In this document: positions 26,730-50,587 of the stretch, piece by piece | Position numbering within the stretch: the first letter of the stretch is position 1 | Layout: every line of letters begins with the position of its first letter | Program-made: the position numbers and the translations under genes | Notes under the pieces: model-generated | The model's database searches: none | What the model saw: the letters and a program-made list of their open reading frames with translations, nothing else | Told to the model about the DNA's origin: nothing | Origin: Escherichia coli | GTDB taxonomy: Bacteria > Pseudomonadota > Gammaproteobacteria > Enterobacterales > Enterobacteriaceae | Length of the DNA stretch: 64,000 bases | Assembly: GCF_029227855.1 (NCBI RefSeq) | Contig: NZ_CP074356.1 | Strand: one strand, 5' to 3'

Positions 26730-27905
<1,176 letters not shown>

Positions 27906-27953: not shown

Positions 27954-28093
27954 ATTTTCGGTCGCTAACCTAAAAGCAAACGCGCACTATGTCAACTCTT
28001 GAGGTAACGCAATCTGCAACTCGGGGTTGCATCTGGTTGTGGTTACAATGAAAATGAGAAGCATTAACTTCATTAATAACAGGAAGCTGATTT

Positions 28094-29050
28094 GTGAGAC
28101 TCGCCTCGCTCTACCGCAACGCCCTTCTATTAACAGGACTTTTGCTTTCAGGAATAGTCGCAGTTCAGGCCGCCGACTGGCCGCGTCAGATTACTGACAG
28201 CCGGGGCACTCATACCCTGGAAAGCCAGCCGCAGCGTATTGTTTCCACCAGCGTCACCCTGACTGGCTCACTGCTGGCGATTGATGCTCCGGTGATTGCC
28301 AGCGGCGCGACCACGCCGAATAACCGCGTCGCGGATGACCAGGGCTTTTTACGCCAGTGGAGCAAGGTGGCGAAAGAACGCAAACTGCAACGGCTCTATA
28401 TCGGCGAACCGAGCGCCGAAGCCGTTGCCGCGCAAATGCCGGATTTGATTTTAATTAGCGCAACCGGCGGGGATTCGGCGCTGGCGCTGTATGATCAGCT
28501 TTCCACCATCGCCCCGACATTAATCATCAATTACGACGACAAAAGCTGGCAGTCGCTGTTAACGCAACTTGGCGAAATTACCGGGCATGAGAAACAAGCG
28601 GCAGAGCGGATTGCACAGTTTGATAAGCAACTGGCAGCGGCGAAAGAGCAAATCAAATTACCGCCGCAGCCGGTCACTGCCATTGTCTATACCGCCGCTG
28701 CACACAGTGCCAATCTCTGGACGCCGGAATCAGCACAAGGGCAGATGCTGGAACAACTCGGCTTTACGTTGGCGAAATTGCCCGCAGGGTTAAACGCCAG
28801 CCAAAGCCAGGGCAAACGCCATGACATCATTCAGCTTGGTGGTGAAAATCTGGCTGCAGGGTTAAATGGCGAGTCACTATTCCTGTTCGCCGGTGATCAG
28901 AAAGATGCCGATGCTATTTATGCCAATCCACTGCTCGCGCACCTGCCCGCAGTACAAAACAAGCAGGTTTATGCGCTGGGAACCGAGACGTTCCGACTGG
29001 ATTACTACAGCGCCATGCAAGTGCTGGAACGACTTAAGGCGCTGTTTTAA
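28094..29050 (+). CDS. fepB: Ferric-enterobactin periplasmic binding protein FepB, 318 aa
   Basis: ORF track 28094..29050 (initiates at GTG), [38 protein letters not shown]... signal peptide plus substrate-binding fold. Confidence 0.9.
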
Positions 29051-38664: not shown

Positions 38665-39867
38665 TCAACTCCTGTCATGGAAAAGTGGTTGCCAGAGGTC
38701 GATTAGCCCCTGCATCAAGCCACCGCGCCAACAAAGCGCATCATGTCCGCCGTCAACCTGACGCCAGAAAATGGATTCTTTTATGGGGTGTAATTGCGCA
38801 TACAGCGCCTGATTGGCCCGCATGATCATCGGCTCGCGAATACCCGCTTCCAGCATAATGCGCAGACCTTCGGCGCTAACTTCACCAGCTTTAAGTTGCT
38901 CAAGTAAAACACCTTCTTGCTGCCCGCCCCGATGAGGCCACCAGTACGATCCTGACTGGCTTAATACACAGCCAAAGCGTTCAGGCCAGTGCAGTCCGGC
39001 ATACAGCGCGGAAAGTCCACCAAAACTCTGCCCGGCGACCACGGTGCGATCGGCGCGATCGCTAAAAGGGGCAATAGCTTTCACCAGGGGTAATAACTCT
39101 TGCTGTACTGCCAGCCAGAAATCCGCATTACACGGCAGTTCGTGGGCGCGGTGCGTGGTGTCAATAGCGTCGATCAACACATACACGGCGGGAGGAAGTT
39201 GCTGACGATGGGTCAACGAAGTCAGCACAGGCCAGACAGGCATACTCTGCGCCCAAAATTCGCCATCGAGCAAAACTGCCAGCGGGCGTTCTCCTGCTGT
39301 TGCATCGCCGGTGGTAAAAATCCATACACGGCGTGAATTTTTCAACCGCTCACTTTTCCAGATAATTTCTTTGGCAGGCGTTTCTGGCGCTTGCGGACAA
39401 TCCCATCCCGGTTGTAGGGGCGCTTGCGGCATTTCGAGTGCAGAAACAGCGTGCCCTCGCCCGCCTTTCCAGCTTTGTGGATTCAGCGGATCGGCTATCG
39501 CCTGGGGCAATAGTTTTCGCCAGCCTTCACGTAATTCGAGGCGATCGGGGGATGGTGCAGAAAAAATGTCATCGCGTTCGGTGGGAATAAAACAGTAGCT
39601 GCCGCGCCAGTTGGCATTAAGTTGTGTCGTCCACTGCCAGACGTTGGTACCTGCAATTCGCTGCATCGACTGGGGCTGGCTGTTCTGATGGTGATCGGTC
39701 ACACCAGTGATGTAGACCCATACGCGCTTTATCGTCGAGTATTCTTCAGAACCTTGGGGATCACGCCACCAGAAAGTGACCTCAAACATTTCGTCATTCA
39801 GACGCTGCCATTCCGGGCCATGTTTCGACTGCCACCAGCTCTCACTTCCTACTTTTAACGCCGTCAC
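38665..39867 (-). CDS. fes: Enterochelin esterase Fes, 400 aa (start at GTG 39867; the internal ATG at 39789, MFEVTFWW..., would give 374 aa)
   Basis: ORF track 38665..39867, ...MFEVTFWWRDPQGSEEYSTIKRVWVYITGV...GQSFGG esterase motif; start codon choice uncertain. Confidence 0.88.
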   Translation of the reverse strand: MTALKVGSESWWQSKHGPEWQRLNDEMFEVTFWWRDPQGSEEYSTIKRVWVYITGVTDHHQNSQPQSMQRIAGTNVWQWTTQLNANWRGSYCFIPTERDDIFSAPSPDRLELREGWRKLLPQAIADPLNPQSWKGGRGHAVSALEMPQAPLQPGWDCPQAPETPAKEIIWKSERLKNSRRVWIFTTGDATAGERPLAVLLDGEFWAQSMPVWPVLTSLTHRQQLPPAVYVLIDAIDTTHRAHELPCNADFWLAVQQELLPLVKAIAPFSDRADRTVVAGQSFGGLSALYAGLHWPERFGCVLSQSGSYWWPHRGGQQEGVLLEQLKAGEVSAEGLRIMLEAGIREPMIMRANQALYAQLHPIKESIFWRQVDGGHDALCWRGGLMQGLIDLWQPLFHDRS

Positions 39868-42487: not shown

Positions 42488-42524
42488 AGTTTTGCGTTTG
42501 TCATCAGTCTCTAATATGGTCGAC

Positions 42525-43670: not shown

Positions 43671-44139
43671 CGCCCGCAGCCATTGCTGACCGCGGGCGAA
43701 AGTGTAAAGCAGGTGCCTTACCACCCTGACCTGACAACCGGATATGCGGGGATTACTCCCCGCACAACGGCTACTTCTTCGGTTCGTAAGCGAGAACAGC
43801 CTTAAACTCAATATTACGTTCCTTCACCGTAAACTCACACAGCGAGTCTCCGACCAGAAGCGTAAATCCCAGTACCGTCAAACACAGCACTATGACTGCC
43901 ACAAGGGCATATTTCGTCAGCATGTTTATATTGCCTCCATGCGAAGAAGGGACTACCATCCAAATTGTCTGGTTTGGAGTGGCAGCCCCAGGGTTGATAG
44001 AAATATCTCCTGGGGCTTCATCTTTCCAGACCTCAGAGTAAACCTGAAACCGGAAAGCTTCAGGCACCCGCCGTTATCTTACCCTTCCTCAGCAAAATGG
44101 CTGTTTATTTATACAGTGAGTCCTGTTTCGGACTTCTCA
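43671..44139 (-). other. hok/sok-type type I toxin-antitoxin locus, copy B (hokE-like), boundaries approximate
   Basis: Tandem direct repeat of copy A with a 504-bp period; same stem-loops; differs by several substitutions and small indels in the mok/leader region. Confidence 0.8.
43771..43923 (-). CDS. hokE: Hok-family membrane toxin, copy B, 50 aa (Gly at position 25)
   Basis: ORF 43771..44067; Hok start at ATG 43923 with GGAGG Shine-Dalgarno: [50 protein letters not shown]. In this copy the upstream frame is fused in-frame to hok. Confidence 0.8.
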
Positions 44140-44354
44140 CTCCTAATTTGATCAACTGAAGCTGAACCCGTTTTTTTCTGCATGCCTCAATCGTCAAAAT
44201 TCTTCGCCACCAGCCAGCTCTGCCATAACTTGTCACATTGCAAAAGTAGCCAAATTGCTTCAGTCACCATCACCAAAAAAAAGAAACATTCCAGAACTTC
44301 CGCATCTCGCCCAGCCGCTCCGACTTCTATACTGAATAGAAAACGCCAACATAA

Positions 44355-47035: not shown

Positions 47036-48331
<1,296 letters not shown>

Positions 48332-48333
48332 TT

Positions 48334-49046
48334 AATAAATATCCTCCGGCATAGCCGGAGGTTTTTCAAATGCGCCTATAAGGCTCTCTTACCAGCCGCG
48401 CCCTAACAGGCGCACACGATCTGACATTTGCATCCAACTTCGTTACTTACGGCCCGTAAACGGGCTGCCCGGATAGGGAATCGATAACTGCTCTCCCATT
48501 TTATCCTCTTCAAGCTGGTGCTTTATGTAATCCTGTATCTTCGCCGTGTTCTTACCCACTGTATCGACGTAGTACCCTCTGCACCAGAACTCCCTGTTCC
48601 TGTATTTGAATTTCAAATCACCAAACTGCTCGTAAAGCATCAGACTGCTTTTCCCTTTCAGATATCCCATAAACCCGGATACGCTCATTTTGGGCGGGAT
48701 CTCCACAAGCATATGGATATGATCTGCACAGCATTCAGCTTCCAGAATCCGTACGCTTTTCCACTCACACAGCTTTCTCAAAATACTGCCTATTGCTCTA
48801 CGCTTCTCTCTGTAGAACACCTGTCTTCGGTATTTTGGCGCAAAAACTATGTGATATTTACAGTTCCATCGGGTGTGCGCTAAGCTCTTTTCGTTCCCCA
48901 TTGGGACCCCCTTTTGATTTCTTGTTTGACACTTGCAGTTGCCAGACCGCAAAGTGTTTTAACAAATCAAAAGGGGTTTTAATAACTGGCTCAAAGCTGA
49001 AAGCTTTCCGGAACCCCCAGCCTAGCTGGGGGTTTTCTGTGCACAA
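48334..49046 (-). mobile_element. IS200 copy 2 (IS200/IS605 family), ~713 bp, inverted relative to copy 1; boundaries approximate
   Basis: Reverse complement matches copy 1 over its full length; I saw one mismatch in the noncoding left part plus one TnpA codon difference. Begins 3 bp after the ybdG stop; its other end abuts the pheP terminator hairpin. Confidence 0.85.
48443..48901 (-). CDS. tnpA: IS200 transposase TnpA, 152 aa
   Basis: ORF 48443..48952; start taken at the ATG at 48901 (MGNEKSLAHTRWNCKYHIVFAPKYRR...); differs from copy 1 at one residue (Ile versus Thr in ...KIQDY[I/T]KHQ...). Confidence 0.9.
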   Translation of the reverse strand: MGNEKSLAHTRWNCKYHIVFAPKYRRQVFYREKRRAIGSILRKLCEWKSVRILEAECCADHIHMLVEIPPKMSVSGFMGYLKGKSSLMLYEQFGDLKFKYRNREFWCRGYYVDTVGKNTAKIQDYIKHQLEEDKMGEQLSIPYPGSPFTGRK

Positions 49047-49109: not shown

Positions 49110-50486
49110 TTATTTCCGACGCAGCGTTTTAAATGCCACAAACAGGAATACAATCCACACCGGCAGCAGGATCGCTGACAAGCGCATATCATCCATCGTG
49201 CACATCAGCAGCAAAATCATGCCGAGGAAGGCAATACAAAGATAGTTGCCGAACGGATAAAGCAGCGCCTTAAACTGTGTTTCACGTCCCTGACGTCGCA
49301 TCGCCGCGCGAAAACGCAGATGCGCCAGGCAGATCATAATCCAGTTCAACAGCAGCGTTGCTACCACCAGCGCCATCAGCAGACCAAACGCTTTTTGCGG
49401 CAGCAGATAGTTGATTAACACCACCAGCGAAGTGATCGCTCCGGAAAGCATCAGCGAGTTAATCGGCACGCCGCGACGGCTGACGCGAGTCAAAAACTTC
49501 GGCGCATTACCCTGCACAGAAAGGCCAAACAGCATGCGGCTGTTAGAGTAAACCCCGCTGTTATACACCGACAACGATGCCACCAGAATGACGAAGTTCA
49601 GCGCAGAAGCCACTACGTTGCTGTCGAGATTATGGAAAATCATCACAAACGGGCTACTGTTAGATTTCACTTCCACCCACGGATAGAGTGCCAGTAAAAC
49701 CACCAGTGAACCGATGTAAAACAGCAGGATGCGATACACCACCTGATTCACTGCTTTAGGGATGCTTTTTTCCGGATCGCGCGCTTCAGCGGCAGTAATC
49801 CCAATCAGTTCCAGACCGCCGAAGGAGAACATAATCACCGCCAGCGATAAAATCAGCCCATTCCAGCCGGTGGCAAAGAAACCACCGTAGCGCCAGAGGT
49901 TGTCGATACTGGCTTTCTCGCCGCCGTGACCAGAAAACAGCAGCCACAGGCCAAAGCCGATCATGCCGATGATCGCCAGCACTTTAATCAGCGCAAACCA
50001 GAACTCGGTTTCGCCATATAAGCGCACGTTCACCAGGTTAACAGCGTTGATGATAATAAAGAAGGCGGCAGCCCAGATCCAGGTAGGAACATCCGGGAAC
50101 CAGTACTGCATATAAATGCCCGCAGCCGTTAGCTCTGCCATCCCCACCAGCACGAACATCACCCAGTAGTTCCAGCCAGAGAGGAAGCCCGCAAACGGTC
50201 CCCAGTATTTATAGGCAAAGTGGGCAAATGAACCGGATACCGGCTCTTCGACCACCATCTCGCCGAGCTGGCGCATAATCAGGAAAGCGATGATCCCGGC
50301 GACGCCGTAGCCCAGCAATACAGCCGGACCCGCCATCTGAATCGCCGGGCCAATGCCAAGAAACAGACCAGTACCAATTGCGCCACCCAGCGCAATCAGT
50401 TGAATATGACGGTTATGTAATCCGCGATGAAGCGTCGGCTCTTGATTCGACGCAGTATCTTCCGATACGGTTGACGCGTTTTTCAC
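49110..50486 (-). CDS. pheP: Phenylalanine-specific permease PheP (APC family), 458 aa
   Basis: ORF 49110..50522; start taken at GTG 50486 (VKNASTVSEDTASNQEPTLHRGLHNRHIQLIALGGAIGTGLF...), as I recall for K-12; the upstream ATG at 50522 would add 12 residues. Confidence 0.9.
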   Translation of the reverse strand: MKNASTVSEDTASNQEPTLHRGLHNRHIQLIALGGAIGTGLFLGIGPAIQMAGPAVLLGYGVAGIIAFLIMRQLGEMVVEEPVSGSFAHFAYKYWGPFAGFLSGWNYWVMFVLVGMAELTAAGIYMQYWFPDVPTWIWAAAFFIIINAVNLVNVRLYGETEFWFALIKVLAIIGMIGFGLWLLFSGHGGEKASIDNLWRYGGFFATGWNGLILSLAVIMFSFGGLELIGITAAEARDPEKSIPKAVNQVVYRILLFYIGSLVVLLALYPWVEVKSNSSPFVMIFHNLDSNVVASALNFVILVASLSVYNSGVYSNSRMLFGLSVQGNAPKFLTRVSRRGVPINSLMLSGAITSLVVLINYLLPQKAFGLLMALVVATLLLNWIMICLAHLRFRAAMRRQGRETQFKALLYPFGNYLCIAFLGMILLLMCTMDDMRLSAILLPVWIVFLFVAFKTLRRK

Positions 50487-50587
50487 GCCTTTCCCCTGTG
50501 TGTCTTTTTTGTTGAGGGGCACCTTTTAACATTTAGTGCCCATCGTCGCAAGACACAATCCACACGGTTAAACGGGGTATCCTGCTT

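Follow-up and report, generated by a model that had tools for sequence, protein, structure and literature searches.

The GTG codons that open fepB, fes, and pheP in the window (the whole stretch of 64,000 nucleotides of Escherichia coli DNA that we analyzed, from contig NZ_CP074356.1) are almost certainly three ordinary, previously annotated initiation codons. All three were already known from reference annotation and literature, while a literature search on GTG initiation of pheP or fes yielded nothing useful. The four codons that a preliminary description of this DNA had named as starts of these genes, i.e., GTG at 28094, 39867, and 50486 and ATG at 39789, are all present at these positions (Table 1).

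The window is the K-12 enterobactin (ent/fep/fes)/pheP/cus region in reverse orientation, with the gene order entE, entC, fepB, entS, fepDGC, fepE, entF, ybdZ, fes, fepA, entD ... ybdG, pheP, and cusA. When a 701-bp query around 28094 was searched against 5,426 complete E. coli genomes, it matched 5,417 of them, several with 100% identity and with fepB and entC annotated beneath the match. The fepB, fes, and pheP CDS measure 957, 1203, and 1377 nt both in K-12 MG1655 (NC_000913.3) and in a strain annotated by PGAP, whose sequence has 100% identity over the 701 bp compared around the start of fepB, which shows that the same three GTG starts are annotated there. Moreover, the start contexts of the three genes are the same in the window as in K-12 MG1655. 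We considered whether GTG starts might be enriched in this region and rejected the idea since 3 of the 23 CDS (13%) in the matching K-12 stretch start with GTG, which is the genome-wide rate. For reference, ~88% of annotated E. coli starts are ATG according to the INRI-seq paper (PMC9825163), and near-cognate starts make up 9% of the annotated sites detected in TRAINSPOTTER (PMC13245402). Because three in 23 matches the usual E. coli rate, the observation is real yet ordinary.

GTG starts are decoded by the initiator fMet-tRNA, and the three proteins would begin with Met, i.e., MRLAS... for FepB, MTALK... for Fes, and MKNAS... for PheP. Each GTG lies 5–9 nt 3' of a modest Shine–Dalgarno (SD)–like purine run, with matches to CAGGA at 9 nt for fepB, GGGGU at 5–6 nt for fes, and AGGGG/AAGG at 2–8 nt for pheP. 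Since exact-match scoring missed degenerate SDs, duplex energies with the anti-SD were used instead. These were -4.3, -5.4, and -6.5 kcal/mol for fepB, fes, and pheP, respectively, against -2.4 kcal/mol for the alternative starts, values that are modest and weakly discriminating because 8–22% of random 20-mers from the window are equally good. All the Ribo-RET values given below were taken second-hand from INRI-seq Table S2 (PMC9825163).

Table 1. Start codons, SD elements, and coding sequences of fepB, fes, and pheP in window coordinates
Feature	Position	Strand	Basis
fepB RyhB pairing-site match (U-20 to G+5), covering SD and GTG	28074..28098	+	PMC4666370
fepB SD-like CAGGA, 9 nt 5' of GTG	28080..28084	+	Motif conservation; -4.3 kcal/mol
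fepB GTG initiation codon	28094..28096	+	Sequence; K-12 and PGAP annotation; INRI-seq; conservation
fepB signal peptide form, codons 1-26, before ADWPRQ	28094-28171	+	Sequence pattern
fepB CDS, 318 aa	28094..29050	+	ORF; NCBIfam equivalog PRK10957
fes CDS, 400 aa plus stop	38665..39867	-	ORF; NCBIfam equivalog PRK10439
fes internal ATG (Met27), rejected start (374 aa)	39787..39789	-	Alignment; SD -2.4 kcal/mol
fes GTG initiation codon (400-aa form)	39865..39867	-	NP_415117.2; PGAP; SD -5.4 kcal/mol
Predicted Fes long-form N-terminal peptide (f)MTALKVGSESWWQSK	from 39867	-
pheP CDS, 458 aa plus stop	49110..50486	-	NCBIfam equivalog PRK10249
pheP GTG initiation codon	50484..50486	-	Annotation (K-12, PGAP); peptide; Ribo-RET; INRI-seq; conservation
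pheP SD region ACAGGGGAA	50491..50499	-	Conserved ACAGGGG; -6.5 kcal/mol
Upstream in-frame GTG opening 470-aa pheP ORF, rejected start	50520..50522	-	Orthologue stops; weak SD; peptide

The GTG and the downstream ATG of fes

For fes, the preliminary description had left the choice between the GTG at 39867 and an ATG at 39789, and this ambiguity is very likely settled in favor of the GTG and the long form. Apart from this GTG, there is no ATG, GTG, or TTG from the upstream stop to the conserved GSExWW motif, and in all 63 fes loci a start codon (ATG, GTG, or TTG) is found 3–8 codons upstream of the GSExWW block. An alignment of 34 sequences shows no variation at Fes residues G7, W11, W12, and P18. 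By codon position, nucleotide diversity amounts to 0.27/0.23/0.44 in codons 2–26 and 0.47/0.53/0.53 in the 30 nt upstream of the start, so that the third-position excess is seen solely downstream of the start, a coding signature in codons 2–26. In the AlphaFold2 model of Fes, with a mean pLDDT of 82.5, residues 11–30 reach a pLDDT of 93–94, residues 9–13 form a helix, and a strand spanning residues 19–22 adjoins a strand spanning residues 27–35.

Comparison with curated families and structures points to the same form. Fes scores 706 bits against NCBIfam PRK10439 (enterochelin esterase; cutoff 222), with residues 2–398 matching profile positions 14–417 of 418, and it aligns over residues 1–400 with PDB 2B20. 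Both 2B20 and 3C87, named enterochelin esterase by their depositors and which we take to be Shigella flexneri Fes, correspond to the 400-aa form, as does the UniProt entry FES_ECOLI, and PDB 3MGA, from a second orthologue, is also the long form. Initiation at the GTG would give a 400-aa protein whose first 26 residues would belong to the conserved, folded part of the enzyme. As for domain boundaries, the first 28 Fes residues fall outside the Pfam Enterochelin_N model, which begins at residue 29, while residues 2–28 are conserved and structured according to NCBIfam PRK10439 and the AlphaFold model. Using Pfam boundaries to choose the fes start was tried and proved nondiscriminating since, with a domain running from residue 29, the 374-aa form keeps all Pfam domains.

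Initiation-site data are less generous with fes. At its GTG, INRI-seq detected an above-threshold peak (>5 CPM; 5.14 CPM) in one of five replicates and did not call the site, while the Ribo-RET value is 0 (Table S2, PMC9825163). We infer that the in vivo Ribo-RET zeros of fes and also of fepB are due to Fur repression in rich medium.

The weak in vitro signal at the GTG leaves room for the idea that E. coli fes produces two proteoforms, the 400-aa protein from GTG 39867 and a minor 374-aa protein from the lineage-specific ATG 39789, which we nevertheless consider unlikely. E. coli does have this ATG, which is in frame 26 codons 3' of the GTG and gives MFEVTFWW..., and internal in-frame starts are common, with 118 alternative starts among the 806 sites in TRAINSPOTTER (PMC13245402). 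However, Table S3 of the INRI-seq study lists no alternative start for fes, although its synthetic transcript holds both codons (PMC9825163), and the ATG lacks both an SD and conservation. Indeed, among the 63 fes loci, just 3, the window included, have ATG at the codon aligned to E. coli Met27, and the aligned residue is Thr in E. albertii and Asn in both Escherichia sp. MOD1 and Salmonella. On our preferred reading, the downstream ATG is an E. coli–specific internal methionine.

It is less probable still, to the point of being hard to credit, that fes starts only at ATG 39789, as originally annotated, with the first 26 codons forming an untranslated leader. In favor of this scenario, ATG is the canonical start codon, the Pfam Enterochelin_N domain begins at residue 29, the GTG was not called by INRI-seq, and GenBank has 374-aa records such as ACB01707.1. 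Yet 60 of 63 species, E. albertii and Escherichia sp. MOD1 among them, have no ATG at the aligned position, where Salmonella has Asn; the supposed leader shows the third-position excess in codons 2–26 and the four invariant residues G7, W11, W12, and P18; and residues 11–30 are modeled with high confidence. Furthermore, no SD is found 5' of the ATG, where the local fold (-16.3 kcal/mol) is stronger than at the GTG, and INRI-seq lists no alternative fes start. In GenBank, the 374-aa Fes is found in 36 contigs vs. at least 1000 with the long form, and those records that keep the legacy 374-aa annotation are very probably in error. The long form, starting at the GTG, is thus the one that we retain.

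Two small reading frames were seen around the fes start. A minimal ORF reading ATG-GTG-TGA (39872–39864, minus strand) overlaps the fes GTG out of frame, and a 12-codon ORF begins at ATG 39880, 13 nt upstream of the GTG. Judging from their positions, fes initiation might face competition from either of them or be coupled to it. In addition, the fes frame of Citrobacter koseri NCTC10786 contains a stop ~32 codons past the start, with loss of the conserved motif, and this gene may be a pseudogene or carry a frameshift.

The GTG starts of fepB and pheP

A TGA is found two codons upstream of the fepB GTG, and no further in-frame start occurs before the TTG at codon 17, within the hydrophobic core of the leader, which means that a complete signal peptide can be made from the GTG alone. 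The assertion in the preliminary description that start choice affects predicted signal peptides is therefore right for this gene. From the sequence, we place the probable cleavage site ahead of ADWPRQ. INRI-seq detected a peak at the fepB GTG (K-12 position 624510) in all five replicates in vitro, while the Ribo-RET value for this start is zero (Table S2, PMC9825163). Translation of fepB is repressed by RyhB, which pairs from U-20 to G+5 over the SD and start codon, as established using compensatory mutations (Wang et al. 2015, PMC4666370). This pairing stretch is identical in the window and in K-12, and the fepB GTG sits inside the site through which translation is repressed.

Conservation of the fepB start was assessed in species-representative genomes scanned with a FepD query, which identified 80 Enterobacteriaceae loci. 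In 76 of them, from ~20 genera, the W-P-R motif served to anchor fepB. A GTG with [CG]AGGA 7–10 nt upstream opens the leader peptide in 73/76 loci. The exceptions are Buttiauxella izardii and Buttiauxella agrestis, which have ATG at the aligned position, and Citrobacter sp. JGM124, which lacks the motif. In all 76 loci, the leader read from the conserved GTG position is basic and hydrophobic, with ~21–28 residues ahead of WPR, forming a putative export signal. FepB scores 519 bits against NCBIfam PRK10957 (Fe-enterobactin ABC transporter substrate-binding protein; cutoff 205), with residues 1–318 matching profile positions 1–328 of 330. At the Citrobacter amalonaticus locus, the fepB match spans residues 139–318 only.

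The pheP GTG, which lies 12 codons inside the ORF opened by GTG 50522, is the experimentally observed N terminus. TRAINSPOTTER lists b0576 as an annotated GTG start (NC_000913:601959–601961) with Ribo-RET and INRI support, and its N-terminomics detected the PheP N-terminal peptide MKNASTVSEDTASNQEPTLHR (positions 1–21) (PMC13245402). Similarly, INRI-seq Table S2 reports pheP peaks of 21–30 CPM in five of five replicates, together with a positive in vivo Ribo-RET value (PMC9825163). PheP homologues of other genera begin MKNAS... or VKNAS..., the initial V of the latter revealing GTG start codons. At the DNA level, the GTG is preceded by a conserved ACAGGGG in the 8/8 other genera sampled (Salmonella, Klebsiella, Enterobacter, Citrobacter, Trabulsiella, Pseudocitrobacter, Yokenella, and one further Enterobacteriaceae). 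PheP scores 1041 bits against NCBIfam PRK10249 (phenylalanine transporter; cutoff 851), matching 1–458 to 1–458 of 458, while PheP does not reach the cutoff of the AroP model. Pi, Wookey, and Pittard, writing in J Bacteriol in 1991, are said to have verified the pheP GTG by mutagenesis and to have mapped the transcription start 30 bp upstream of it. A promoter consensus scan upstream of pheP found nothing.

There is next to no chance that pheP starts at GTG 50522 (470 aa) or fepB elsewhere, for example at its codon-17 TTG. GTG 50522 does open the longest ORF, but its SD pairing (-2.4 kcal/mol at a spacing of 15) is not usable, it would add the extension MPLNKKDTQGKG to PheP when the N-terminal peptide detected begins at 50486, and in-frame stops are found between the orthologous positions of 50522 and 50486. 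These stops, at codon -2 in Salmonella, -7 in Enterobacter, and -5 in Yokenella, with no upstream start, exclude the longer pheP ORF. The transcription start reportedly published 30 bp upstream of GTG 50486 would also put 50522 outside the mRNA. As for the fepB TTG, it has an AGGA nearby, but initiation there would produce a signal peptide that lacks its charged N-region and half of its hydrophobic core, and the INRI-seq peak is at the annotated GTG.

Taken together, these findings show that the start calls of the preliminary description are reliable in this window. Its GTG 28094 for fepB agrees with the K-12 and PGAP annotations, INRI-seq (5/5), the RyhB site, and conservation (73/76), and its GTG 50486 for pheP (VKNASTV...) with annotation, the N-terminal peptide, Ribo-RET, INRI-seq, and the 8/8 other genera. 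The long form of fes from GTG 39867 is backed by annotation, orthologue alignment, the coding signature, and the AlphaFold2 model, whereas the alternative ATG 39789 (MFEVTFWW..., 374 aa) exists at that position but has an aligned ATG in no more than 3/63 loci. Of the two checks it had proposed, alignment to orthologues supports the GTG starts of all three genes, and initiation-site data do so for pheP and fepB, the evidence for fes being limited to an INRI-seq peak in one of five replicates, with a Ribo-RET value of 0.

The relevance of these results is limited to annotation hygiene, and they raise no new question. An ATG-only rule would produce a Fes without 26 conserved residues and leave FepB with no usable start or signal peptide, while a longest-ORF rule would put a false 12-residue extension on PheP. 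The longest-ORF rule misleads in other cases in the window as well. The longest fepA ORF runs from an upstream GTG (40050), and the annotated start is a downstream ATG (40110); likewise, the longest entD ORF runs from an upstream GTG (42375), and the annotated start is a downstream ATG (42525), with another in-frame ATG 3 codons upstream of 42525, at 42516. Beyond entD, a 135-codon ORF (43744–44151, plus strand) between entD and ybdK has no Pfam match. Elsewhere, the entD–ybdK interval contains hokE/sokE plus IS186 (K-12) or IS150 (strain 4621), and these differences among strains make it a variable region.

Start-codon retention and comparison with known starts

GTG is generally a less efficient start than ATG. 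The strict presence of GTG in fepB and pheP, set against turnover at the fes start, suggests, as far as sequence comparison goes, that selection might act on start-codon identity. Perhaps these two genes keep GTG because their expression is tuned by a weaker start codon, and the location of the GUG inside the RyhB pairing site may be a reason for its retention in fepB. A broader scenario, in which the fepB and pheP GTG codons are under purifying selection as weak or regulatable starts and E. coli separately makes a minor 374-aa Fes isoform, is tentative, and we would sooner bet against it than for it. If true, retained weak GTG starts and a minor Fes isoform would be small refinements of known biology, and strict GTG retention in fepB and pheP adds at most a minor data point to work on start-codon selection.

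How do these starts compare to those of K-12? K-12 fepB (b0592) has the same SD, GTG, RyhB stretch, and 318-aa length as in the window, with a few residue differences between the two signal peptides (e.g., S5 against P5). However, the K-12 fepB leader has a 186-bp repeat element that is missing in the window, which accounts for an entC–fepB intergenic region that is shorter in the window (188 bp) than in K-12 (374 bp). The K-12 form of the fepB leader is found in 2,755/5,426 complete E. coli genomes, about half of them, and the median genome has the 186-bp element at 6 places. The element is GC-rich and lies in K-12 between GAGAAGCATTA and the SD region (~27545–27730 of the K-12 locus), the corresponding window site being 28060–28075.

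K-12 fes (b0585; NP_415117.2) encodes the same 400-aa long form as the window. In the start region, the two sequences match at every base from 23 nt 5' of the GTG to the end of codon 40, with one base differing further upstream, and the mature protein shows a few substitutions. K-12 pheP (b0576, NC_000913.3 601959) has an identical start context, covering 80 nt on the 5' side and 30 nt on the 3' side, and the same 458 aa, but it lacks the IS200-like element that follows the pheP terminator in the window. This element of ~710 bp (window ~48330–49040) lies between pheP and ybdG, directly after the pheP terminator hairpin, and contains a transposase ORF (48446–48901, minus strand) that matches Y1_Tnp (PF01797, E = 4e-38).

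In the general class of near-cognate (GTG/TTG) starts, which open ~9–14% of E. coli genes, GTG initiation is SD assisted, like here. Compared to this class, the window is no more than mildly notable, for the strict retention of GTG in fepB (73/76) and pheP (9/9 genomes). Unlike both, the fes start shows turnover among ATG, GTG, and TTG across orthologues.
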